A DNA stretch of 64,000 bases from Parcubacteria group bacterium (GCA_943358385.1 CALRGX010000006.1:3559-67558); one strand, 5' to 3'; shown: positions 4,058 to 38,305, counted from the first letter of the stretch. Made by a program: numbers and translations. Notes: generated by a model from the letters alone, not told the origin.

Positions 4058-4250
4058 TGTTGCTCAGTTGCTCGTAGCTCGAAAGAAACGAAGGGATGGC
4101 GAACATAAGGCCAAGAATTGGCAAGACCAATGCAACGACAGTGGCGATGACCATCCCCAGAAAGTATTTGCGAGTTTTCTCTACTGAAATGTAAATGGCG
4201 TCTACTTTTTCTTCTAGATGCGCAAGTTTTTTCCACGTTTCGGTGTCCAT
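4038..4250 (-). CDS. Small hypothetical membrane protein (70 aa, one TM).
   Basis: The ORF has a hydrophobic core (VIATVVALVLPILGLMFAIPSF). It overlaps the DedA start by 20 nt and would be the first gene of the minus-strand operon. A TATAGT -10-like hexamer sits just upstream. Confidence 0.4.
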   Translation of the reverse strand: MDTETWKKLAHLEEKVDAIYISVEKTRKYFLGMVIATVVALVLPILGLMFAIPSFLSSYEQLSNIESLEF

Positions 4251-4422
4251 ATGTAGGCACTATAGCACTCAATTGTTCATCACCCGTGTGGAGCAATATG
4301 AGCATAAGGGGGACTTGACGTATCATGTGTGCGTGCTATGGTGCTGTCGGTCAAGACAGAGTCTTGGCACTTGGGCACTGCCCAAGTACTGAGGATAGCA
4401 ACAGAAAGTTGGAGAACGCACC

Positions 4423-8528: not shown

Positions 8529-9500
8529 CTAGAAACCACGCTGTGCAGTTACCACCAGGTGGTCTACGAACTGCGGCAAGGACGTACCAATTGCATTGAG
8601 TGCCTTTGGGATGAGCGATTCTGCAGTCATCCCAGGGAGTGCATTTGCCTCGAGGAAGTACACCTTACCGTTCCTACCAATGCGGAAGTCTGATCGCGAG
8701 TAATGTGCTAACCCGAGTGATTCGTGCGCGGTGCGGGCAGCATCTTCCAGCCGAGTCTTGAGATCATGCGAAAAGGTTGATGGGCACAATTCTCGCGTCG
8801 CCCCACTGTATTTTGCATCGTAGTCAAATAATGAATCGTTCGCCAAAATAATTTCGACGGGAGGCAGTGCATACAGGTCTTGTCCACGGAAATCCTCGAC
8901 GACCCCCACTGTTGCCTCTTGTCCCACAATGAACTCTTCCACCAGCACTGATTCGTGTGCCTCAAGCGCATCTGCAATTGCATGGGCGAGCTCCATGAAC
9001 GTCTTGGCGAGTGTAAGACCAACTGAGGAGCCACCAAAGGCCGGCTTGATGATGTAGGGCGGCGCAAATGTGGCAAACACCTGATCGGCCATGGCTGCAG
9101 CGTTGCAATCATTCGGTAGTGCAAAGAACAGGCCGCGTGGCACAGCAATTCCCTGCTCACGCAGGACTACTTTTGCACGGTTTTTGTGCATTGAAAGCGC
9201 AGCGCCAGATGCGCGCGAGCCGGTATACGGAATTCCCGAGCGCTCCAGAAATCGCTGCACAGTGCCGTCTTCGCCGTAGGTGCCGTGCAAACCATTAATG
9301 ACGACATCTACGCCCGTAAGTGCGCGCAGCGGGTCCATGGGTCGCCCATTTCTGTGCCAGGCGCCGTCACGCGCTATAAACAAATCGTGTGGATGGTAGC
9401 GCTCTTCATCGAGTGCCGCCAGAAACGAGGCACCAGTTTTCAGCGACACTTCATATTCTGGTGAGGGACCACCGCGCAACACGCCGACAACGGTTTTCAT
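8529..9500 (-). CDS. ddl: D-alanine--D-alanine ligase.
   Basis: It has the ATP-grasp Ddl layout (MKTVVGVLRGGPSPEYEVSL ... IIKPAFGGSSVGLT ... EEFIVGQEATVGVV ... YFLEANALPGMT). The start is set at MKTVV, 20 codons into the track ORF. Confidence 0.9.
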   Translation of the reverse strand: MKTVVGVLRGGPSPEYEVSLKTGASFLAALDEERYHPHDLFIARDGAWHRNGRPMDPLRALTGVDVVINGLHGTYGEDGTVQRFLERSGIPYTGSRASGAALSMHKNRAKVVLREQGIAVPRGLFFALPNDCNAAAMADQVFATFAPPYIIKPAFGGSSVGLTLAKTFMELAHAIADALEAHESVLVEEFIVGQEATVGVVEDFRGQDLYALPPVEIILANDSLFDYDAKYSGATRELCPSTFSHDLKTRLEDAARTAHESLGLAHYSRSDFRIGRNGKVYFLEANALPGMTAESLIPKALNAIGTSLPQFVDHLVVTAQRGF

Positions 9501-9560
9501 ACATCCAGTATAGCAAGCAAAAGCAGCAACCTGTTGTTGCTGTAAACAAATTCCTGCCAC

Positions 9561-10793
9561 CTATCCCAAGAGTGCACGTCGCATTTTTTTTCTATGGAAA
9601 CCAATGGCGAAGCGGTGCGATTCAGCGTTGGCAAGGAGAATTTCACGCTGATAAGCTTTCTTTTTTGTAGAATCACCAAGAATCTCCTTTGCTTTGTGGT
9701 ATTCGTCTTTGAGCACACTGACCACGGGGACGTTAATGCCCAATTTTTCCAAAGTGCGTATAGCCATCGCAAGCTGCCCTTTCCCACCATCAATTACTAC
9801 CAATTGTGGTAGGGTCCACTCGCTATGCGCAAAGCGTCTTTGGAGTATCTCCTGTAACGCTTTGGTGTCGTCGTTTCCCACTGTGTGTACGTTAAATTTG
9901 CGGTAGTCGGACAGCTTGGTCTCACCATGCTCAACTACAGTCATAACTCCAACGGTCGCTTTTCCTGCCAAATGCGCAATGTCGTATGCCTCAATACGTA
10001 CGGTGCCACTTTCACCACCCGCCGAGTGGAAATCTCCCTTAATCAGCGCAACATCACGAATGTGAGTAAGTGCGTACACTTGTTTGCGTAAGTGAGCGGC
10101 ACTCTCAAATGCTTCGTTTTTTGCTGCGGTTTGCATTGCCTTTTCTAGTTCCTTGAGTAGTGCGTTCTTCTTTCCACTAAAAAGGAGAATAATGTGCTTG
10201 ATGATTCGTGCATAGTCACCCTTACTACAAGATCCATCGCATACACCGGGGCACAAGCCGAGCTGCCGGTTGAAGCATGGCTTGGGAAACTTTTGTAGTG
10301 CGGCTATCTGGCATGCATCGCGAAAAGGAAATATTTTGCGCACGAGCTTCATCGCGACCTTCAAGGCACCACCTTCAGGGAATGGGCCGAATAGTTTTTT
10401 TATATCCTTTTCCTGCCAATTTTGAAAGAGTTCACGACCACGTACCACCAATACACGTGGATACTCTTCTTTGGTGATGACGAGATAGTTATAACTTTTG
10501 TTGTCCTTTTCGCGCGCGTTGTATGGCGGCTGGTGTTTTTTTATGAGGTTTGCCTCTAGAATAAGGGCTTCCAGTACTGAATCTGTCGCTTCCCACGTAA
10601 TGGTGTCGGCCTCTTCTACCATCACCCGAATACGAGCTCCACGAGTGCTGGTGAGGTCTTTTGAAAAGTAGCTACGCACTCTGTCTTTGAGAGAGGTGGC
10701 TTTCCCCACATACAGTAGTTTTCTTCCTTTAAGAAAGCGGTAGATACCAGGTGTATCTGGCAAGGCACATTGTTCAAATTGAGCGCGTTCCAT
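9561..10793 (-). CDS. uvrC: Excinuclease ABC subunit C, short form (about 410 aa) lacking the C-terminal (HhH)2 domain.
   Basis: The N-terminal GIY-YIG domain (GIYRF...LYVGKATSLKDRVRSYF...YN) is followed by a Cys motif (CPGVCDGSC), a UVR region (FESAAHLRKQVYAL) and the RNase H-like endonuclease domain (IEAYDIAHLAGKATVGVMTVV...LVVIDGGKGQL). The protein ends after that domain. The start is at MERAQFEQ. Confidence 0.85.
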   Translation of the reverse strand: MERAQFEQCALPDTPGIYRFLKGRKLLYVGKATSLKDRVRSYFSKDLTSTRGARIRVMVEEADTITWEATDSVLEALILEANLIKKHQPPYNAREKDNKSYNYLVITKEEYPRVLVVRGRELFQNWQEKDIKKLFGPFPEGGALKVAMKLVRKIFPFRDACQIAALQKFPKPCFNRQLGLCPGVCDGSCSKGDYARIIKHIILLFSGKKNALLKELEKAMQTAAKNEAFESAAHLRKQVYALTHIRDVALIKGDFHSAGGESGTVRIEAYDIAHLAGKATVGVMTVVEHGETKLSDYRKFNVHTVGNDDTKALQEILQRRFAHSEWTLPQLVVIDGGKGQLAMAIRTLEKLGINVPVVSVLKDEYHKAKEILGDSTKKKAYQREILLANAESHRFAIGFHRKKMRRALLG

Positions 10794-10862
10794 ACTGAGT
10801 GACCATATCAAATAAATGTGTATAGTGCATGCAGCTCCACACCTGATAAGGAAGAGACGGTC

Positions 10863-11225
10863 ATGCCTGAAGAACATAGCCGGCCACCCGGCGCACAGAA
10901 AAATGCCTGGTGGATAACGTCGCAGAATGACAATCAAGAAGGTCTGCCAGATTCTTTCCCATACTACCGTTGTCGAGCAGGTTTGGCACTTGTCGGTTAC
11001 CTACTCATCCAACTGCTAATCCTCATGTGCGCCACGTGGTACCAGACGGAGTTGGTGCGTATTGGACGTGAGATGCGTATTACGCCCATAGACACTCAGA
11101 TGACGTCCCTCGTGGTGACTGCGTTGTTTGCAGCAGCGGGTACCCTAATTGCCACGGTATGGGCGGCGTGGGTCCTTATAGGAAACGCCCGGTTACTGAA
11201 AAGCGTCTGTCGCGAATGGCGCTAA
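10863..11225 (+). CDS. Hypothetical membrane protein.
   Basis: The ORF has two hydrophobic segments. The start is chosen at MPEEH to avoid overlap with uvrC. A terminator hairpin follows. Confidence 0.4.
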   Translation: MPEEHSRPPGAQKNAWWITSQNDNQEGLPDSFPYYRCRAGLALVGYLLIQLLILMCATWYQTELVRIGREMRITPIDTQMTSLVVTALFAAAGTLIATVWAAWVLIGNARLLKSVCREWR

Positions 11226-12084: not shown

Positions 12085-14691
12085 CTAGCGCTTCTTCAGA
12101 ATTTTTTGTAGGTACGAACCAGTTGCCGACTTACTGTTGTTAGCCACTTCCTCAGGCGTACCTTTTGCCACAATGTTGCCACCACCCGTGCCACCGGTAG
12201 GACCCATATCGATTATATAGTCGGAACACTTAATCAGATCGAGATTGTGTTCAATTACCACTACGGTGTTTCCTCGATCGACCAGTTTTTGCAATATTTC
12301 GATAAGCTTTCGGACGTCCTCGTAATGCAACCCGACTGTTGGCTCGTCTAAAAGGTACACCGTTTTGGTCATGTGCGGGCGATACAATTCGGATGCTATT
12401 TTTACGCGTTGCGCTTCACCCCCAGAAAGAGTGGTCGCACTCTGCCCGAGTTCCAAGTAGCCCAACCCCACATCAATTAGTGTTTGTAGGCGATCCGACA
12501 CTGCCGGAATATCGCGGAAAAATTCTTCCGCTTCTTCGATGGTCATGGAAAGGATGTCGTGAATACTTTTCTTCTTGTACTTCACCTCCAACGTTTCCTT
12601 CATGAATCGCTTCCCGTTACAGACATCGCAGGTCACGTAGACGGTAGGCAAGAAGTGCATTTCAACCGCAATCATGCCGTTGCCTTCACAAGATTCGCAG
12701 CGTCCTCCTTTTACGTTGAATGAGAATCTGCCAGGGCCCCATGCGCGGGCCTTTGCTTCTTCGGTGAGAGCGAACATGTCGCGGATATGCGTCCATGCCC
12801 CCGTGTAGGTTGCAGGATTACTGCGTGGTGTGCGGCCAATTGCCGACTGATCAATGAGGATGGTGCGGCCAAGGTAATCTAATGCTCCATCAAAGGTACC
12901 GACGTTGTACAGTTTTGCCGTCCGATAGCGGCGATCGAGCTTTGCACGCAGGTTCCGGTCAAGAATTTCATAAAGAAATGTAGATTTTCCCGAGCCTGAC
13001 ACACCTGTCACACAAACCAACTTTCCTAGTGGTAGATCAACATTGAGGTTTTTTATATTGAATTTGTTGGCGCCGCGGATTTTCAACTTCCCCTTGTCGT
13101 TGGTGCGGCGCTCCTCAGGTATCTCGATTGATTTTTCACCACGCAAATAGGCGAGTGTTTCTGAGCCGGATGTATTCTTCTTTGCAGTCAAAAGGTCCTC
13201 CAACCATCCAGAAGCGACGATATTGCCTCCGTGCACACCAGCACCGGGTCCAATATCAATAATGTAATCAGCAGCATAAATAGTGTCTTCGTCGTGCTCC
13301 ACCACAATCACGGTGTTTCCTAGGTCGCGCAGGTTCTTCAGCGTTTGGATCAATCGATCGTTGTCCCGTTGGTGCAAACCGATAGTTGGTTCATCCAGCA
13401 CATACAAGGCGCCAACCAATCCCGATCCGAGCTGTGAAGCAAGGCGAATGCGCTGCGCTTCGCCACCTGAGAGGGTGTTTGCACGGCGATCAAGAGTCAG
13501 ATACTCGATGCCCACATCAAGCATGAATTTCAAGCGGTTGGTGATTTCACGATTAATAGCTTGAGAAATTTCCTGCTCTTTTTTGCTGAGCTTCAATTTT
13601 TTGAAGAATTCGTCCGCGTCTTCGATAGACATGGACGCCACTTCGACAATATTCTTCCCTTCACCCTTCGGACCACCCATAAATACATTCAATGCTTCTG
13701 GCCGTAGTCGCGCTCCCAAGCACGCGTCGCACGGTTCATCACCAAACAAAAACTTGGTCCCGAGGCCGTTACAGGCTGGGCACGCTCCATACGGCGAGTT
13801 GAATGAGAAAAGGCGCGGTTCCACTTCAGGAAATGAAAACCCATCGTGCGGACACATAAATTTGCTCGAGGCGACACGGGTAGAACCATCAGGATTCTGC
13901 ACCTTCACTAATCCATCGCTTTCGTGAAGCGCTCGTTCAATAGCCTCGCTTGCACGCTCGCGTGAACCTTTCGGATCCGTCTCGAATTCGCTCACAAATA
14001 TTTCATCAACCACAATGTCGATGTGGTGCTTCTTGTTTTTGGAGAGCTCTACGCGCTCACGCAGTGATTTCACCTCGCCATCAATAATGGCTTTCTCGTA
14101 GCCTTTATTCAGCATGTCGTACAAAAGTTGGTAGTACTCACCTTTGCGACCGACTACAATCGGCGACAGGATACCCACTTTAGCCTGAGAAATCTCGGCC
14201 CCCATTACTTTCTTTTTTCCTGCCTTGCGTGCGTCCTCCACCATTCCCATCACTAGGGCTAGGATTTCTTCATTGCTGAGCTTACGCACCTCATGGTCAC
14301 AAGCCAAGCAGTATGGCTTTCCAACGCGAGCATACAAAACGCGTAGGTAGTCGTAAATCTCGGTAATAGTGGCAACCGTCGAACGTGGGTTGTTTGAGCG
14401 GCTCTTTTGGTCGATGGAAATGGCTGGCGAAAGGCCGGAAATTTCATCAACATCTGGCTTTTGCATTTTATTCAAGAATTGGCGGGCGTATGCCGAAAGA
14501 GACTCAACATATTTTCGCTGACCTTCTGCAAAAATAGTGTCAAACGCAAGCGATGACTTCCCAGAGCCAGAAAGCCCGGTGAATACGATAAGCTTGCCTC
14601 GCGGCATCTCTACCGAGACGTTCTTGAGGTTGTGGGTACGTGCACCCTTTACAATTATTTTTTCGTAGTCGTCTTTCTTTTGCATAGCCAT
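12085..14691 (-). CDS. uvrA: Excinuclease ABC subunit A.
   Basis: It has two ABC ATPase modules with Walker [13 protein letters not shown] and [17 protein letters not shown] signatures and zinc-finger Cys clusters. The start is at MAMQKK. Confidence 0.95.
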
Positions 14692-14794
14692 CGCCCCCTC
14701 TGCATGCGCAAAGGGGTACATGGGGGCACTGTAACACAACGGAGAGTTCTATACACGTGGAAATACCACGCATTGTGTTTGCTATACTGCTCGC

Positions 14795-21027: not shown

Positions 21028-23094
21028 CTACTTTTTTTGCACTGATTTTTTCTTTGCCGTTTTCTTCCCATTCTTTTTCTTCTGCTGTGCCGCATGTTTT
21101 TCCTCAAGTATGCGCACCTCATCGCGTAAGAGAGCCGCCGTTTCAAAGTCGAGTCGATCAGCAGCGTCGTGCATTTCTTCTCGCTTTTCGATAATCAGTG
21201 CTGAAAGATCTTTTGTGTGCGACTCAATGTCAACTATGGTGGACACCGCTTTCTGCCGAGCTTTTTGAATGTCTCCCATGATGTCGGCAATGCGCTTCTT
21301 GATGGTCTGTGGGGTAATGCCGTGTTTTTGGTTGTAGGCGTGCTGTGTAGCACGGCGGCGATTCGTCTCACCAATTGCTTTTTCAAGAGAGTTAGTCATG
21401 TGATCGGCATACAGGATTACACGGCCATTCACATTGCGCGCTGCGCGCCCAATAGTTTGGATCAAAGATGTTTCGCTGCGCAAGAACCCTTCTTTATCCG
21501 CATCCAGAATGCCCACAAATTCCACTTCCGGAAGGTCAAGACCTTCGCGCAGAAGGTTGACACCTACCAGTACATCAAATTCGCCACGACGAAATGCCGT
21601 CAATATTTCTATGCGCTCTATGGTCTTTACGTCACTGTGCAAGTACTGCGCCTTTATATGCTTTCCCTTAAGAAATTCTGCCAAATCTTCGGCCATTTTC
21701 TTCGTCAACACCGTCACGAGCGTACGTGCGCCGCGCTTGGTAATGCGATCTGCTTCTGCGATAAAGTCGTGTACCTGACCAGGATACTTTCCTTTTTCCA
21801 CCACTGGCCGGACTTCAATTTCAGGATCCAAGAGACCAGTCGGACGAATGACCATTTCAATTGGAATACCGCCTTTTTCTCGCTCGTATGCTGCAGGTGT
21901 GGCGCTGGTGTAAATAACACTTCCCACTCGTTCTTGGTACTCAGGAAAAGTAAGCGGGCGGTTATCAACGGCACTTGGCAAGCGAAAACCATGTTCAATG
22001 AGGGTGAGTTTGCGCGACCGATCGCCCGCATGCATGCCACCGATCTGTGAGAGGGTTACATGGGATTCGTCGATAATGGTGAGGAAATCAGGTGTGCCGT
22101 CGGGAAGATGAGGGAAATACGAAAGAAGTGTGTATGGAGGCTCTCCTGGTTTGCGTCGATCAAAGTGGCGAGAGTAATTCTCGATGCCGTTGCAATAGCC
22201 AAATTCTTGGATCATGGCGATATCTTGTTTGGTGCGTCGCTTGAGACGATCGGCCTCAAGGAGCTTGCCTTCCTTTTCGAAAACCGCCAGCTGCGCCTTC
22301 AGCTCTTCGACCATCTCCTGCACGGCGGCATCTTGGATGTCCTTTGGTGTTACATAGTGACGCGCAGGGAAAATGAAGAGCGTATCGTGCTCGCCACGAA
22401 TTTCACGCGTGACCGGGTCATATTCAGTGATTGACCCGATGCCATGAGGCGCAAACTGTACACGGTACAATGCGCGCTCGTTGGCGGGCATGATTTCAAC
22501 GTAATTCCCCAGTGCGCGGAATGTTCCTGGAGTAACGTCACCTGGTGTGCGAGTGAAGTAAATACCAATCAATGCCCGTATAACGTCCGCACGAGTCCCG
22601 GCCGTGCCTGCAGCGAGCTTTACGTTCACCTTTTCATACTCTTCCGGGCTACCCAAACCGTAAATACAAGAGACAGAAGCCACAATAATCACGTCTTTTC
22701 GCGTGAGGAGTGCCTGTGTGGCAGCGTGGCGAAGGCGCTCTATATCCTCATTGACCATCGCTTCTTTTTCAATGTAGGTGTCTGAGGTAGGAACGTAGGC
22801 CTCTGGCTGATAGTAATCGTAGTAAGAAACAAAATAATGCACTGCGTTGTGAGGAAAAAACTCGCGATACTCGGCCGCCAATTGTGCGGCCAGCGTTTTG
22901 TTGTGGGCAATCACCAGTGTTGGCTTGCCTATCTGTGCAATGACATTTGCAGCAGTATAGGTCTTTCCTGACCCGGTCACACCCAAGAGTGTCTGATGCT
23001 GCTTGCCAGCACGAACACCCGCGACCAATTTTTCGATGGCTTGCGGCTGGTCGCCAGCAGGTATGTGTGTAGATTCTAATGAAAAAGCACTCAT
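21028..23094 (-). CDS. uvrB: Excinuclease ABC subunit B.
   Basis: It has helicase motifs (GVTGSGKTYTAAN ... DESH) and a C-terminal UVR domain (LDFETAALLRDEVRILE). The start is trimmed to MSAFSL (cat at 23092..23094). Confidence 0.95.
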   Translation of the reverse strand: MSAFSLESTHIPAGDQPQAIEKLVAGVRAGKQHQTLLGVTGSGKTYTAANVIAQIGKPTLVIAHNKTLAAQLAAEYREFFPHNAVHYFVSYYDYYQPEAYVPTSDTYIEKEAMVNEDIERLRHAATQALLTRKDVIIVASVSCIYGLGSPEEYEKVNVKLAAGTAGTRADVIRALIGIYFTRTPGDVTPGTFRALGNYVEIMPANERALYRVQFAPHGIGSITEYDPVTREIRGEHDTLFIFPARHYVTPKDIQDAAVQEMVEELKAQLAVFEKEGKLLEADRLKRRTKQDIAMIQEFGYCNGIENYSRHFDRRKPGEPPYTLLSYFPHLPDGTPDFLTIIDESHVTLSQIGGMHAGDRSRKLTLIEHGFRLPSAVDNRPLTFPEYQERVGSVIYTSATPAAYEREKGGIPIEMVIRPTGLLDPEIEVRPVVEKGKYPGQVHDFIAEADRITKRGARTLVTVLTKKMAEDLAEFLKGKHIKAQYLHSDVKTIERIEILTAFRRGEFDVLVGVNLLREGLDLPEVEFVGILDADKEGFLRSETSLIQTIGRAARNVNGRVILYADHMTNSLEKAIGETNRRRATQHAYNQKHGITPQTIKKRIADIMGDIQKARQKAVSTIVDIESHTKDLSALIIEKREEMHDAADRLDFETAALLRDEVRILEEKHAAQQKKKNGKKTAKKKSVQKK

Positions 23095-23188
23095 AGCGTG
23101 TAGTGTGCCGTACAATGTGCGCAACGGCAACGCTTGTGTTGTTTGTGAAAAAGCGTCACAGTGGCGCCAGCCAATGAGGAGACCGTCA

Positions 23189-23446
23189 ATGCAGCGCACC
23201 CTTTCTCCATCAAACAATGTAGACAAGGCCCAGCCGGCATCCCAGACGCTGGCAGAACAAAGTACATTACGGAAAGACGCCGATCAGTACTTTCTCAGCA
23301 TCATCCACAGCGGCGGTGTCGACCAGGCCACGTATGAGGATTTTCGTTGGCAGCTCGCCAGACACGTGGGGTGTTCGGTCGAAGGTTTGGATGAAGTGCT
23401 TGCTCGTTTCATGTTGAAGTTCAACATGCGCAGCGTCGTCCCATAA
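23189..23446 (+). CDS. Hypothetical small protein (85 aa).
   Basis: A GAGGAG RBS lies 7 nt before the ATG at 23189. It is divergent from uvrB. Confidence 0.3.
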   Translation: MQRTLSPSNNVDKAQPASQTLAEQSTLRKDADQYFLSIIHSGGVDQATYEDFRWQLARHVGCSVEGLDEVLARFMLKFNMRSVVP

Positions 23447-28915: not shown

Positions 28916-28988
28916 AGCGGTATACTAGCATGGTATGGCTGGCCTTTCGTGTGGGTGGCTTAGACCGTACTATGTGTGTAATAAAACC

Positions 28989-29510
28989 ATGGCTACGCCG
29001 TCTTATACAAAGGAAAAAGATGAATTTTTGGCCGCCCACGAGGAGTTTTCAGATACCATCTTCCGGTTCTGCTTTTTGAAGGTGTCGAACCGTGAACTTG
29101 CCGTAGACCTCATGCAAGACACATTTACCAAAACATGGGAATACATCGCAAAGGGTGGCAAGGTGGATCATTGGAAGGCTTTTCTCTTTCGCACAGCAAA
29201 CAACGCAATTATCGACTATTATCGGAAGAAGAAGGCGCTGTCACTGGACGCACTGACGGATGACACCGGGTTCGTGCCCATCTCCGAAGACATGGACGCT
29301 GAAGAAGCGGCCCAAGTGACCGAGGCCCATCGCGCCCTCAAGCACTTGCCGCCGGAGTTCAGAGAAGTGGTCTCTCTGCGCTTTATAGATGGATTACAAC
29401 CGAAGGAGATTGCCGAACTTTTAGGATTGAGTACGAACGTGGTTTCAGTGCGCATTCATCGTGGCGTTGAGCAATTGCGAACGTACATGATGAATAAAAA
29501 AACTGTATGA
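28989..29510 (+). CDS. RNA polymerase sigma-70 family, ECF-type sigma factor.
   Basis: It has region 2 (DLMQDTFTKTWEY...) and a region 4 HTH (EIAELLGLSTNVVSVRIHRG). Confidence 0.85.
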   Translation: MATPSYTKEKDEFLAAHEEFSDTIFRFCFLKVSNRELAVDLMQDTFTKTWEYIAKGGKVDHWKAFLFRTANNAIIDYYRKKKALSLDALTDDTGFVPISEDMDAEEAAQVTEAHRALKHLPPEFREVVSLRFIDGLQPKEIAELLGLSTNVVSVRIHRGVEQLRTYMMNKKTV

Positions 29511-30778
29511 AAAACGAATACGATTACACCGACATTGAAAGGAAACTACACGCATTGAAAGGTGTGTCTCTTTCTGCGCGAGAGAAATTACAGTCGAAGG
29601 AGCTTCTAGAGGAGTTCATGGCTTTCCGCCCTATCCATACCACGGTTCCGAAACTTTCCCGTTCCCCTCTTTTCTTTTTCCATCCCATGCCTATGGTTGC
29701 ACTCCTCCTTTTAGTGGTGATGACTACCTCCACTGCGGCAGCCGCTGAAGGAGCACTTCCTGGTGATTTGCTCTACCCCATCAAAGTCCATGTGACGGAA
29801 GAAGTTCGCGCGGTAATAGCGATCCAACCTACCGCCAAAGCATCGTGGGCAATTGAACGCGCGGAACGCCGATTGGACGAAGCGGCTCAATTGAGTACTG
29901 AAAACCGCCTCGACGATTCGAAAAGGGCCGAACTCGCCCTCGCCGTTGAGAACCATGTACAAGTTGCTGAAGCATTAGTTGAGCTCCCCGTTGCCGCAAT
30001 CGCACGTGAGACATCACACACTGAGGGAACAGCACCTTTCGTAGCCACTACTACCGAAGAAGTGCCGCCAACTCTTGCTGAGAGCATTGACGAAGGTGAC
30101 GTGGAAGAAGCGCAGGAGCGAGAACGAGTGTTCACTCGAATCGCCATTGCGCGTGAAGCAAAGAGTCGCATCATAGAACGTCACGTGGCTCTTGCCGAAA
30201 CGACCACTGAAACTCCAGAGCGTACCATTTCACGTCGCGAGTCAGAAAACTCAAATCGCTCACGCAACCGCCGCAGCAAAGTGAAAATTGACGCACCAAT
30301 CGCCGCGACACTCCCTATCGCAGCTGAACCAGCGCCACTTGAATTGGATGCAATGATGCTTGCGGTTGAGCAGGCTAGTGCCACGCCCGAAACCGCATCT
30401 CTGGCGATGAGTGCAGAGATTGCTACAAGCAGCGACACCTCTACGACAAGCGCCGCGTCCGATACACCCGATGTTGAAAACCATTTCTCTAGCCAAGGCC
30501 GCTTAATGGGACTGCAGGAAGGTGTGCTGCGACGCATCGAGAGCGCCGAACGATCGCTAACCAATGCTGAGGCAAGCTATGGCAAAGAGACGTTTGCTGA
30601 TGTGCGTTCACAACTGGAAAAAGTAAAGGAGCTGGCCATTGCCGGTGATCGCAATGCAGACGAGGTGCTCGAGGACGCGGAAGATGCACTTGAGAAACTA
30701 CTGGATGTACTGGAAAAAACACAAGGCAAGGTAGAGCTATTGCGTTTGGAGTTATCGCAAAAAGAAAACGACTACTGA
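29507..30778 (+). CDS. Putative anti-sigma / DUF5667-like single-pass membrane protein cotranscribed with the ECF sigma factor.
   Basis: Its start overlaps the sigma factor stop (ATGA). It has a TM (VALLLLVVMTTSTAAAA), then an LPGDLLYPIK motif and a long Ala/Glu-rich coiled region. Confidence 0.55.
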   Translation: MKNEYDYTDIERKLHALKGVSLSAREKLQSKELLEEFMAFRPIHTTVPKLSRSPLFFFHPMPMVALLLLVVMTTSTAAAAEGALPGDLLYPIKVHVTEEVRAVIAIQPTAKASWAIERAERRLDEAAQLSTENRLDDSKRAELALAVENHVQVAEALVELPVAAIARETSHTEGTAPFVATTTEEVPPTLAESIDEGDVEEAQERERVFTRIAIAREAKSRIIERHVALAETTTETPERTISRRESENSNRSRNRRSKVKIDAPIAATLPIAAEPAPLELDAMMLAVEQASATPETASLAMSAEIATSSDTSTTSAASDTPDVENHFSSQGRLMGLQEGVLRRIESAERSLTNAEASYGKETFADVRSQLEKVKELAIAGDRNADEVLEDAEDALEKLLDVLEKTQGKVELLRLELSQKENDY

Positions 30779-35678: not shown

Positions 35679-35735
35679 CCCACCAACGCCGCCCTCTACG
35701 AGTGCGGCGTTCTGTTGGCGCTATATACTTCTTGC

Positions 35736-36440
35736 ATGTCTGAAGGCGCGCCCAAAAATAAGAAGACACCGCTTGAAACTCCTTCGCGGCGAGACCTACT
35801 CAAAGCAGCACTGGCAGTGGCACTTGCCCCAGCCGCACTATCATGGGATGCCTTGCAATCAACGGCACACGCACTCAATGTTCCTCGCGGGACGCCACTC
35901 CTCCAAACACTCGAGGCACTGTTCAAAGCAACCGAATCAGAAAAATTTGAGTCACTTGCGTACGCCCTCCATCACCCAGTGCATTTTCCGAATGGATCTT
36001 CCGTTGACGTGAGTAAATCGATTGCTCAACGAAGTATATGGGGCATTTCAGGAAAAGGTATTCAACTCTTTTTCAATGTTTTATACGGTGTGCAAGGCCA
36101 TGACCTGTTGCATGCCAAAGGGATTACCATCTTCAGTGCGCACACGCATACCAAGGCAGGGCATCTGGCCCTCTTTCCGAAGGACGTACTGCAACGTATT
36201 GCTGCCACTGGGCGCGCGTACGTTGGCCTACCGTCTACTACCGATTTTAAAAGTACTGCCATAAATGGTTTGCAAAGTGCGCAGCGCGTACTGGCACATC
36301 ACGACCCAACCTTTGCTGGGATGCCAGCAATCAATGCACTGGACCTGGTGGTAACTAATGTGGGTGTGTACATCACACGTGCACTCCCTGAGCATCCATC
36401 ATCTGCAATGGATCTAGAAAAGATGTGCCGCCCACTCTAG
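35736..36440 (+). CDS. Hypothetical Tat-signal secreted protein. The downstream ORF 36425..36637 in another frame may be its frameshifted continuation.
   Basis: It has a twin-arginine-like motif (SRRDLLKAALAVALAPAALS). The start is chosen at MSEGAPK. Confidence 0.5.
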   Translation: MSEGAPKNKKTPLETPSRRDLLKAALAVALAPAALSWDALQSTAHALNVPRGTPLLQTLEALFKATESEKFESLAYALHHPVHFPNGSSVDVSKSIAQRSIWGISGKGIQLFFNVLYGVQGHDLLHAKGITIFSAHTHTKAGHLALFPKDVLQRIAATGRAYVGLPSTTDFKSTAINGLQSAQRVLAHHDPTFAGMPAINALDLVVTNVGVYITRALPEHPSSAMDLEKMCRPL

Positions 36441-36635
36441 AAAAAGCTTGGGCAGTGCAGAATGTGGCGTGGATTTCATTTGTTAATACTTCACTGGGGC
36501 AAGGCGCTACGTGGGACAGCATCCTCGCGTCGCCAGAATACGCGGCATTGCAACGTTTCGTTCTGGAACAGTTCGGCGTCAGCTTGAGTTTCGTGCCGCG
36601 CAGTGAGGTAAGCGTTGCGAATATGTTGCATAAGT

Positions 36636-36660
36636 AAAGGCGCCACAATGTGACGCCTTT
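36636..36660 (+). terminator. Imperfect terminator hairpin (AAAGGCGCCACA a TGTGACGCCTTT) followed by a GT-rich tract.
   Basis: The inverted repeat lies right after the stop at 36637. Confidence 0.4.
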
Positions 36661-36694: not shown

Positions 36695-37123
36695 TCATCC
36701 GAGCTCTTGCACCACCTCATAGTGCTGCAGGTCTGAAAAGTGAAGCGCCAGGATGGGCCCAAGCACATTTCGAGACCGCGAGCTTTCCGTCTCTCGCACC
36801 AAGTACTCAGCGAGCGTGTCCAGACTGCATGGCTGCGTCTCGGTTTTCACCTCGACGACCCTGAAGTACTTGCCAGCGCGACTCTTGAGGACATCGCCGA
36901 TGGAGACGTTCGTATAGGCTCCGTAGCCATGGTGAACGAACTCCGGCAAGTCTTCGGGATAGAGCGGCTCACCAGTATCGTACAGACGATCCTTGCCAAT
37001 GCGCGCAGTCGTAGCAATCCGCCCATGTGCGGGCAGATCCTTTCCCACGGCGGTCACCACGTAGAGGACGCCGCGATTTGTCGCCAAGAGATTCGGTCGC
37101 AGGTCATTCAGGCTCAGTGGCAT
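36695..37123 (-). CDS. Hypothetical protein.
   Basis: ORF. The start is trimmed to MPLSLND. Confidence 0.4.
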   Translation of the reverse strand: MPLSLNDLRPNLLATNRGVLYVVTAVGKDLPAHGRIATTARIGKDRLYDTGEPLYPEDLPEFVHHGYGAYTNVSIGDVLKSRAGKYFRVVEVKTETQPCSLDTLAEYLVRETESSRSRNVLGPILALHFSDLQHYEVVQELG

Positions 37124-37202
37124 CAAGAACACTCCTGTTTTGTTCAGCCAGCGGGTATTTTGCGCTCCCAAAGCAATTTGTCAACCTTACTCGTATCTAA
37201 TT

Positions 37203-37314
37203 TTATAAAGGACCGACCTTTATACAAACGAACACCGTAGCGAGCCTGTCCATTTCAAGGGCAGGCTCACCTTATTACAAACATCGTCCGAAAATATAAA
37301 GGTCGGTCCTTTAT
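37203..37314. repeat. MITE-like inverted pair. Two copies of a 21-bp palindromic motif TATAAAGG-N5-CCTTTATA lie in opposite orientation at 37203..37223 and 37294..37314, flanking an internal 7-bp-stem hairpin at 37241..37267.
   Basis: Copy 1 is TATAAAGGACCGACCTTTATA. Copy 2 is TATAAAGGTCGGTCCTTTATA, its exact reverse complement. GAGCCTG...CAGGCTC lies between them. Confidence 0.55.
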
Positions 37315-37398
37315 AATTCTAGGGACTGACTGCAATTGACCTAACGCAGTACAGGGCGTAGGGTGCACCTAGTTTTCCTCCAACAAAGGATCTGCACT

Positions 37399-37683
37399 AT
37401 GCCTTGGATGAAGGTTACAATCACTGTTTTGGGTGCCGTTGCCCTCTCTCTCAGCCACTGCTTCGCGCAAGGGCAACCAGCGGCACCACCCCCAACGCTG
37501 CCTGCGCAGCAATGTGTTGTGATTTCACTTGACCAGATTCCACCCGAGAAGCGTCGCGAATACGAGATGCTTGCCGAGATTGGCAAAGCTCTCGGTCGAC
37601 CCATGGTGTGCACGGAATGCACCCAAAGCGGCGCCAAAATCATCACCTGCAACATGGGATGCCGCCCAGGTATCCAGTGCTGA
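37399..37683 (+). CDS. Small secreted cysteine-rich protein (about 94 aa precursor, signal peptide, 6 Cys in the C-terminal 45 residues).
   Basis: The sequence MPWMKVTITVLGAVALSLSHCFAQG shows an h-region and AXA-like cleavage context. The mature part is ...QQCVVISLDQIPPEKRREYEMLAEIGKALGRPMVCTECTQSGAKIITCNMGCRPGIQC. A TTGACC-17-TAGGGT promoter-like pair lies upstream at about 37335..37363 and an intrinsic terminator lies downstream. Confidence 0.5.
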   Translation: MPWMKVTITVLGAVALSLSHCFAQGQPAAPPPTLPAQQCVVISLDQIPPEKRREYEMLAEIGKALGRPMVCTECTQSGAKIITCNMGCRPGIQC

Positions 37684-37699
37684 CCATCACTTGGTCGTG

Positions 37700-37731
37700 C
37701 CCCGTCTTCCACAGGAGGACGGGGTTTCTCT
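37700..37731 (+). terminator. Rho-independent terminator (CCCCGTCTTCC aca GGAGGACGGGG followed by TTTCTCT).
   Basis: A stem with one mismatch and a U-tail lies 17 nt after the stop of the Cys-rich peptide gene. Confidence 0.6.
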
Positions 37732-37737
37732 ATAAAA

Positions 37738-37758
37738 TATAAAGGACCGACCTTTATA
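37738..37758. repeat. Third copy of the 21-bp palindromic motif TATAAAGGACCGACCTTTATA.
   Basis: It is identical to copy 1 at 37203..37223. It lies immediately after the terminator. Confidence 0.6.
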
Positions 37759-38305
37759 TTGGTGTTGTTTCGCGTGGTTTTGCGAGTGCGTCGATGATGC
37801 GGGTATTGGGGAGCGTGCCGAAGAATGATCCAGGCACGATGAGTTTTGAGTTGCGTACGCCGCTCCCTATCACCACCCACTCGCTCTGTGCAACCGCGGC
37901 ATCCACCAAAATGGGCCACTCGCTCGGCAATCCTACGGGCGTAATGGCCCCATACTCCATTGCGCTTTTACTCACGGCATCTTCCATCTTTGCAAAAGAC
38001 ACTTTCTTTACGGCAAGTGCGGTACGCACAGCAATGTTTACATCCAAGCGCATACTTCCCAGCACCATGCACGCAGCAAATATGTTTGTCTCGCCGCCTT
38101 TGCCTTCCACGATCACGCAGTTGGCGCATTGTGCCGGTGTCACACCATATTCTGTGCAAAACGCTGCAGTATCAGAAAATGATGGGTCAATCGGTGCTAC
38201 CAGCACATTAGCGCTTTGCAGTTGCTCTAAAAGTGCTCGCACTGGCGCCGCGAGTAACTCTGTAGCATCCTGCCACTTTTTGGTTTCAAAATTGCCGTAA
38301 TTCAT
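37754..38305 (-). CDS. YbaK/ProX-type aminoacyl-tRNA deacylase (trans-editing domain).
   Basis: The YbaK/ProRS-editing-like domain has KSAMEYGAITPVGLP and a Gly-rich substrate loop. The start is at MNYGNFE. Confidence 0.65.
   Translation of the reverse strand: MNYGNFETKKWQDATELLAAPVRALLEQLQSANVLVAPIDPSFSDTAAFCTEYGVTPAQCANCVIVEGKGGETNIFAACMVLGSMRLDVNIAVRTALAVKKVSFAKMEDAVSKSAMEYGAITPVGLPSEWPILVDAAVAQSEWVVIGSGVRNSKLIVPGSFFGTLPNTRIIDALAKPRETTPI

Follow-up and report, generated by a model that had tools for sequence, protein, structure and literature searches.

A low-copy palindromic repeat at structural breakpoints around a secreted-peptide gene in a Parcubacteria genome

Results

We analysed a stretch of 64,000 nucleotides (64 kb) from a Parcubacteria group bacterium (GCA_943358385.1 CALRGX010000006.1:3559-67558), called the window below, in which a 21-bp palindrome, TATAAAGG-N5-CCTTTATA, occurs exactly three times within and beside the surroundings of a gene for a 94-amino-acid (aa) secreted protein (Table 1). 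The peptide gene is flanked by a divergent 142-aa gene and a convergent ybaK gene, and copies of the palindrome stand in both of the gaps between these genes. Our reading, which is tentative and falls a little short of an even chance, is that the 21-mer belongs to a low-copy family of short, extragenic palindromic repeats in Paceibacteria-type members of the candidate phyla radiation (CPR), and that this family is prone to copying or recombination. Other loci and contigs are designated below by L numbers.

Table 1. Features of the peptide locus, with positions counted from the first nucleotide of the window
Feature	Position	Strand	Remarks
142-aa gene	36695..37126	-	Divergent from peptide gene; function not assigned by families
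Promoter of 142-aa gene	TTGACA 37184-37179; CAAAAT ending 37157	-	Spacer 16 nt; conserved in four relatives
Motif copy 1, TATAAAGGACCGACCTTTATA	37204..37224	none	Ends 19 bp upstream of -35 box of divergent 142-aa gene
Filler between inverted copies 1 and 2	37225..37294	none	70 bp
GC-rich hairpin inside filler	37242-37268		Stem 10 bp
Motif copy 2, TATAAAGGTCGGTCCTTTATA	37295..37315	none	Reverse complement of copy 1 without mismatch; its end is 20 bp upstream of the putative -35 box of peptide gene
Peptide promoter (inferred)	37336..37364	+	TTGACC 37336-37341, spacer 17 nt, TAGGGT 37359-37364; read from sequence
Putative ribosome-binding site of peptide gene	37385-37390	+	AAAGGA; read from sequence
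Gene for 94-aa secreted protein	37399..37683	+	Six conserved Cys in mature part
Intrinsic-terminator-like hairpin of peptide gene	37699..37725	+	Stem of 12 bp (8 GC) with T-rich tail; copy 3 follows after 12 nt
Motif copy 3	37738..37758	none	Right arm carries ybaK stop (TAA, 37754-37756, minus strand)
YbaK/EbsC-type aminoacyl-tRNA editing gene (ybaK)	37754..38305	-	Convergent with peptide gene

Three exact matches to TATAAAGGNNNNNCCTTTATA were found, with the spacers ACCGA, TCGGT and ACCGA in copies 1, 2 and 3, respectively; in dinucleotide-preserving shuffles (n = 100) the mean was 0.01 matches, and three or more were reached in 0 of 100. No further copy of this type was present in the 64 kb at up to 2 mismatches, and still none at up to 4, and the core AGGWCSGWCCT did not occur in the window outside the three copies. 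The palindrome is near-perfect, its asymmetry being limited to one W position and the centre base. Copies 1 and 2 form inverted arms of 22 nt (100% complementarity, 70 nt apart), and their 131-nt unit, taken as single-stranded DNA, folded at -29.2 kcal/mol (z = -8.5); copies 2 and 3 form inverted arms of 26 nt (96% complementarity) with 416 nt between them. A first-pass annotation of this DNA had described three copies unique in the window, the first two as exact reverse complements 70 bp apart with an internal hairpin and the third right after the terminator of the enclosed gene, and all of this was borne out. Direct duplications flanking the copies, as target-site duplications would be, were looked for and none was seen. 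Searches with Rfam 15 gave one tRNA and otherwise no match across the window at the gathering threshold, and chance-level matches alone for positions 37100-37800 at E <= 10. Readings of the motif as a dif, parS or Ter site were set aside: cumulative GC skew showed no switch within the window, and its sequence is not that of such sites.

A 19-mer of the motif was scanned through 185,579 species genomes and metagenome contigs. Exact copies numbered 4 in the Paceibacterota metagenome-assembled genome (MAG) Gw_Eff_bin_92 and 5 in the Patescibacteria MAG P6-19, counts that refer to exact 19-mers, and the metagenome scan added about 9 distinct sites on contigs with a GC content of 0.38 to 0.56. Orthologs of window genes were found in L040, from Gw_Eff_bin_92, and a protein labelled Candidatus Pacebacteria is also such an ortholog, which places the window in this lineage. 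The recurrences in other CPR genomes keep the asymmetric spacer TCGGT/ACCGA, and their flanks are unrelated past about 4 nt or a few A/T residues; the repeated unit is therefore the palindrome of about 21 to 29 bp only. The first-pass annotation had taken copies 1 and 2 as a 112-bp unit like a miniature inverted-repeat transposable element (MITE), for which dispersed copies would speak. The 19- to 21-mer is indeed scattered through other CPR genomes, but the 112-bp unit is present at this locus only. A classical MITE is not supported, as no unit of about 100 to 500 bp is repeated whole and neither a target-site duplication nor a transposase was found; what remains of the suggestion that a miniature mobile element landed here is that the copies lie at structural breakpoints (see below). 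An origin of the motif from phages or plasmids was rejected, with zero matches in IMG/VR contigs, GenBank phages and PLSDB plasmids.

Some matches were set apart. Those from Flavobacteriales (L005, L022, L027 and L030) represent one locus inside a coding open reading frame (ORF) and were put aside as unrelated. Contig L024 is a Bacteroidota-like integrative element, with an integrase beside a tRNA; its motif copy (4187-4222) is preceded by an overlapping half copy (GTCGGTCCTTTCA TATAAAGGACCGACCTTTATG), and a second, fully symmetric variant, TCTAAAGGTCGGACCTTTAG, lies 2.5 kb off. The L024 copies may be unrelated to the CPR family. Positions 1-10197 of L031 form a near-perfect inverted self-duplication in which all features are mirrored and the 5' end of the large-subunit rRNA stands at both ends; this is probably an assembly artefact.

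Comparison of the sites separated a fixed centre from changeable arms. The core AAGGWCSGWCCTT was unchanged at every site, the 11-nt core AGGWCSGWCCT was retained in all instances, and a 13-nt core (AAGG-TCGGT-CCTT or its complement) was invariant, while outer stem positions differed among sites. The outer arms changed in compensating pairs (GATAAAGG/CCTTTATC, AATAAAGG/CCTTTATT, TACGAAGG/CCTTCGTA and TCTAAAGG/CCTTTAG), with G..C, A..T, CG..CG and C..G as the pair types, and a single contig, L031, held two different arm versions. The spacer was nearly always one asymmetric pentamer in either orientation, the heterologous (T,A) state being found in about 22 of 23 sites. Its orientation differed even at similar or orthologous positions (window versus L040; L026 versus L031a) and may flip through hairpin-mediated events. 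The motif is predicted to form a hairpin with a stem of 8 to 10 bp and a loop of 5 nt (-6.5 to -8.9 kcal/mol; z, -1.7 to -4.2); this AU-rich stem has 2 GC pairs, T-runs follow some copies, and separate GC-rich terminators are often adjacent. A conserved apex on a covarying base fits a hairpin-forming element better than a duplex operator.

Among the sites with clear context, 16 of 17 were non-coding (P < 1e-10 at a coding density of 80 to 92%; the window is about 92% coding). Sites were found 0 to 20 nt after a stop codon (window copy 3, L010, L006, L008, L009, L021, L026, L031a and L031b), 4 to 21 nt after a GC-rich terminator hairpin (L001, two copies in L002, window copy 3 and L038a) and 3 to 35 bp upstream of a -35-like hexamer (window copies 1 and 2, two in L038, L041, L040, L001, two in L002, L026 and L008). 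Window copy 3 and L004 lie between convergent genes, L031b between rplJ and rplL, and the L009 copy between a stop codon and a terminator. At L029 the motif forms the apex of a 20-bp terminator stem in a leader upstream of thrS that is probably a T-box, and at L007 it is in frame inside uvrC. The sites share neither a gene theme nor a fixed promoter geometry.

Two of these sites can be described further. The L029 leader (4233-4360) has a weak Rfam T-box match (E = 0.3, to the 3' part of the model) and a GGUGGAACCGCG box; with the motif taken out, an ordinary terminator stem with the loop AAAA/TTTT would remain. L007 (2126-3403) encodes the UvrC of MAG P6-19, and its motif (2662-2682; ..KKIKVGPLSS..) falls in a segment of about 22 aa between two CxxC pairs that is missing from the UvrC of the window (9561-10937).

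Hairpins beside gene ends raise the question of an RNA-level element, in which the AU-rich hairpin with its A/U tracts would act as a weak bidirectional terminator or as a stabiliser of mRNA 3' ends. About 9 sites at most 20 nt after a stop codon, five just after a GC-rich terminator, the T-runs behind many copies, the predicted folding energies, the arm covariation that preserves pairing and the L029 copy, which extends a genuine terminator stem, would all suit such a role. Terminators, however, neither need nor normally show a loop or apex sequence conserved across genomes, the stem here is weak and GC-poor, and copies 1 and 2, which stand upstream of both promoters, are probably untranscribed. 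Moreover, at surely transcribed sites the loop in the transcript sense was UCGGU in 7 and ACCGA in 4; this mixed orientation relative to transcription indicates the DNA level rather than the RNA level and makes a loop-specific RNA function unlikely. We consider an RNA-level element very unlikely.

The sites near promoters bear on another explanation, an operator or activator site at which a conserved CPR dimer would bind a 10-1-10 palindrome and co-regulate a set of genes including the 142-aa/peptide pair. As in operators of dimeric repressors or activators, a near-perfect palindrome of about 20 bp stands in the gap of a divergent gene pair with -35 boxes nearby: copy 1 is 19 bp and copy 2 is 20 bp upstream of its box, a symmetrical arrangement, and in relatives the motif is 3 to 7 bp upstream of -35-like hexamers at five promoters and 13 to 35 bp upstream at others. 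The conservation of the core over distant CPR lineages is also in favour of this explanation. Unlike such operators, the motif has no coherent regulon, the genes next to its copies sharing no theme, and many sites are not at promoters at all (copy 3, L004 between convergent genes, L009, L029, L031b and the coding site L007). Compensating changes in the outer arms are unexpected for a duplex site read by one protein, and independent evolution under a W-tolerant dimer would give mixed spacer states rather than (T,A) in nearly all sites. A regulator gene is not adjacent; the 142-aa neighbour, considered as a candidate regulator and rejected, has no match in Pfam, NCBIfam or PHROG and no detectable DNA-binding domain, although its AlphaFold model is poor and unusable (predicted local distance difference test [pLDDT], 45). 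A LexA box was also dropped, as the LexA motif of Patescibacteria is described as a direct repeat (PMC7739468).

Promoters orthologous to that of the 142-aa gene gave a further view of the operator explanation. The -35 and -10 boxes are conserved in all four relatives, but the motif upstream of them is not constant. L038 and L041 have a perfect copy, 6 bp from the -35 box; the L040 copy, 3 bp from the box, has four mismatches and its spacer in the other orientation; and L039 has none. The distance to the orthologous -35 box thus varies (3, 6 and 19 bp, the last in the window), and the genome of L040, with its degenerate site, keeps four perfect copies elsewhere. Both observations speak against an operator, which we regard as unlikely.

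The same relatives showed that copies of the motif mark places where closely related genomes differ. L041 is 94.8% identical to the window over 3.4 kb, in an alignment that starts at the edge of copy 1, and L038 aligns with the window outside copies 1 and 2 in both directions. Inside the inverted copies, the 70-bp filler gives way in L038 to a segment of 939 bp that holds a 267-aa His_Phos_1 gene with its terminator, and L041 has this same segment up to the end of its contig. On the peptide side, the -10 box and the 5' untranslated region are identical in L038, and the -35 region has diverged. At the other end of the peptide gene, the ybaK relatives in L033, L034 and L035 (82%, 73% and 68% identity) lack both the motif and the peptide gene, and there ybaK ends directly after ...AKPRE; in the window and in L010/L042 it runs 4 to 5 codons further into the motif, which supplies the stop. 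The counterpart of copy 3 in L010/L042 is present in degenerate form; in L010 its left arm is decayed and folding no longer predicts a hairpin, and the peptide terminator has kept its stem with a changed loop. All three window copies thus coincide with structural breakpoints between close relatives. Homology with L041 and L038 starts or ends at the motif edges, and the fillers are unrelated. A comparison of the locus among relatives had been proposed in the first-pass annotation, and segment replacement as well as presence and absence of the motif were what it brought out.

Several smaller differences were seen next to the copies. On the promoter side of copy 1 (37225-37190), the window is 13 bp longer, with aaattagatacgagtaagg where L041 and L038 have atatgg/aaaagg before TTGACA, and the window and L038 have almost nothing in common over the 40 bp from copy 2 to the -10 box of the peptide gene; the sequence beside the copies is therefore unusually unstable. 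Contigs of relatives (L010-L012 and L038, four independent assemblies) end 0 to 34 nt upstream of the peptide start codon, which suggests strain-level or population heterogeneity at the promoter region. The 70-bp filler was considered as a deletion remnant of the 939-bp segment, and this was rejected, homology between the two being at chance level only. A few kilobases from the syntenic region, L033 has a 409-aa gene (9287-10516) that combines an RVT_1 reverse transcriptase with a DnaG-type zinc ribbon and is without a counterpart in the window.

Segments bounded by alternating sites are also known from the pdif-flanked dif modules of Acinetobacter plasmids, in which sites alternate, some segments are empty of a reading frame and single segments are replaced between closely related plasmids (PMC13141974). 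The motif could likewise be a core site at which a site-specific recombinase exchanges small gene segments, in the way of Xer on those plasmids. The sites in the window alternate in orientation (ACCGA, TCGGT, ACCGA) and bound small segments; the segment between copies 1 and 2 has been cleanly swapped in sister strains, with homology ending at the site edges; and the L038 gene likewise lies between inverted copies, 939 bp apart. An 11-7-11 reading of the extended palindrome moreover gives a size that tyrosine recombinase sites typically have. Conservation, however, is reversed: pdif sites combine separate conserved arms for XerC and XerD with a 6-bp spacer that varies, whereas here the centre is invariant and the outer arms vary. 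The present sites are chromosomal, and copies in other genomes are mostly solitary. No inversion variant was found among the matches listed for this species, all of uniform arrangement (of the 18 contigs with the gene, 8 places were listed and 9 similar ones grouped with them), and L039 keeps the gene order without a site. No recombinase gene was found nearby in the Pfam search of the window or, apart from the integrase on the Bacteroidota-like contig, by tblastn probes of 331 kb of collected loci, and spacer orientation, differing as it does at orthologous or similar positions, may lack directional meaning. Taken together, recombinase core sites appear improbable.

The peptide gene itself gave no sign of a dedicated link with the motif. 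The 94-aa protein has seven Cys (residues 21, 39, 71, 74, 84, 88 and 94), of which Cys21 lies within the signal peptide and is not conserved; the other six are conserved. The first-pass annotation was right about a small, secreted, Cys-rich protein of this size, and only its placing of six Cys in the last 45 residues failed, as six lie in the mature part and five in that stretch. Close homologs formed a single cluster (69% identity) among 5.8 billion proteins searched, and a profile search of 1.8 billion representatives added one homolog, P0127 (89 aa, with the same six Cys). Another profile match, P0128 (1400 aa), lacks the Cys pattern and looks spurious. The ratio of nonsynonymous to synonymous substitutions (dN/dS) was 0.19 overall, 0.066 in the mature part and 0.54 in the signal part, and the low value in the mature part (about 0.07) argues that the gene is real and under purifying selection. 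AlphaFold predicted a compact strand-helix-hairpin for the mature domain of 57 aa (pLDDT of about 90), for which a fold search of the PDB returned no match, and the protein belongs to an orphan family without matches in Pfam, NCBIfam or PHROG.

A bacteriocin- or signalling-like function had been put forward for this peptide; apart from the missing family match, no neighbouring maturation, export or immunity genes of the bacteriocin or pheromone kind were present at the locus, and nothing in these data points to either activity. The gene of the distant homolog lies between polA and tsaE with no motif nearby, and the motif therefore does not travel with the peptide family. An operator for a repressor of the peptide gene, one of two explanations offered by the first-pass annotation, does not agree with this or with a 21-mer that stands beside many unrelated CPR genes and at non-promoter sites.

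The neighbourhood of the peptide locus comprises ybaK, a phosphatase, a methyltransferase and genes of no assigned function. Upstream, two overlapping ORFs in different frames (35715-36440, plus strand, 241 aa with a signal like that of twin-arginine translocation; and 36425-36637, plus strand, 70 aa) jointly match one 291-aa gene of L033 (38% and 48% identity), and single genes of 300 to 305 aa stand at the corresponding position in L039 and L040 (matched by position, not by sequence). The pair appears to be one gene broken by a frameshift or a split in this species, all contigs of which have two gene calls here. Elsewhere in the window, uvrC (9561-10937), uvrA (12085-14739) and uvrB (21028-23226) all lie within 14 kb, and an extracytoplasmic function (ECF) sigma factor and a DUF5667 protein are encoded at 28935-30778.

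Discussion

The palindromes form a family that occurs across genomes and in non-coding positions, keeps its core while the arms covary, lies at structural breakpoints and has decayed in some lineages. Our tentative reading of this family as copying- or recombination-prone extragenic repeats would work as follows. The unit would be a palindrome able to fold into a hairpin. Its apex (AAGG-TCGGT-CCTT or its complement) would be invariant, and the 4 to 8 further pairs at the base of the stem could change in sequence provided that they still pair. Copies would settle, or survive only, where a small palindrome is harmless, such as in A/T tracts after stops and terminators, just upstream of -35 boxes, in hairpin loops or in a tolerant loop of UvrC. 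Once in place, they would act as points of breaking and rejoining in DNA rearrangement, and at this locus they would delimit two segments, a swappable 70-bp hairpin filler and the 416-bp stretch with the peptide gene and its terminator. The three copies would then record the history of a variable hot spot beside ybaK and not a dedicated control of the peptide gene. A protein that recognises the apex of the hairpin or cruciform would presumably copy or recombine the palindrome.

Repetitive extragenic palindromic (REP) sequences and their inverted doublets (REPINs) of Enterobacteria and Pseudomonas are among the closest known systems. They are mobilised by RAYT (Y1/HUH) transposases, whose gene usually has REPs on its flanks, and doublets are their common unit. 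These families persist through vertical inheritance. Like the palindrome described here, they are short (20 to 35 bp), extragenic and hairpin-forming, and are found after genes and between convergent genes in either orientation. The REPIN architecture is an inverted doublet with a spacer of about 70 bp (PMC3337134, PMC3116915), and copies 1 and 2 form such a doublet. In contrast to REPs and REPINs, the present palindrome is far lower in copy number, with one doublet seen, an inverted pair 939 bp apart in L038 and the other copies solitary; it has no conserved 5' tetranucleotide beside the hairpin, and its stem is AT-rich. Nor was a RAYT/Y1 transposase found in the window (Pfam) or in 331 kb of collected loci (one tblastn probe), and the core spans lineages far deeper than those over which a REP family is usually shared.

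Neisseria dRS3 elements offer a second parallel. Each is a 20-bp repeat whose ends are short inverted repeats (ATTCCC-N8-GGGAAT); the elements lie on either side of variable intergenic segments, have been proposed as places where DNA is inserted, deleted or rearranged beside surface-protein genes, number about 700 per genome and serve as the attachment site of a filamentous prophage (PMC3898611). As in dRS3 and the NIME arrays, the 21-bp repeat here flanks variable segments, at strain-level breakpoints and beside a gene for a secreted protein. It differs from dRS3 in its unrelated sequence, its few copies per genome and the absence of matches in viral contigs and phage records.

Several observations weigh against the reading of the family as copying- or recombination-prone repeats. 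Classical REP or dRS3 families reach tens to hundreds of copies, and here there are 3 in 64 kb and 4 to 5 exact copies per MAG. The 13-nt core is identical across organisms whose L10 proteins are about 40% identical (estimated by eye), and such deep identity is more in keeping with purifying selection on a cellular role than with an element that is purely selfish. At least 9 sites lie 3 to 21 bp upstream of a -35-like hexamer, a position that could reflect a regulatory role and not an insertion preference. For a single copy, neither a strain-level pair of empty and filled sites nor a target-site duplication was seen. Finally, a search for an enzyme gave no Y1/RAYT-type, IS110/Piv-type or other recombinase in the window (four Pfam batches), and tblastn probes of the 331 kb of collected loci returned one integrase, on the Bacteroidota-like contig.

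A more specific form of the proposal, in which the hairpin or cruciform, with its invariant apex, would be recognised by a conserved CPR protein able to cut and rejoin DNA at these sites, seems to us quite unlikely. If it were true, these ultra-small bacteria would own a chromosomal segment-exchange system that swaps small accessory genes, such as those for secreted proteins and phosphatases, between strains, with an outcome like that of dif modules or NIME arrays and a different site logic. If the palindrome were instead the binding site of a regulator, it would define one of the few conserved regulons in CPR.

CPR/Patescibacteria genomes are tiny and tightly packed and are usually described as poor in repeats and mobile DNA, and a family of hairpin-core repeats that spans distant CPR lineages would be unusual among them. 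The palindrome would be a practical marker of variable hot spots and of assembly breaks in CPR metagenomes. Because its copies sit exactly where close strains differ, the family would give a handle on accessory-gene variation in CPR, including variation in secreted proteins that may act on hosts.

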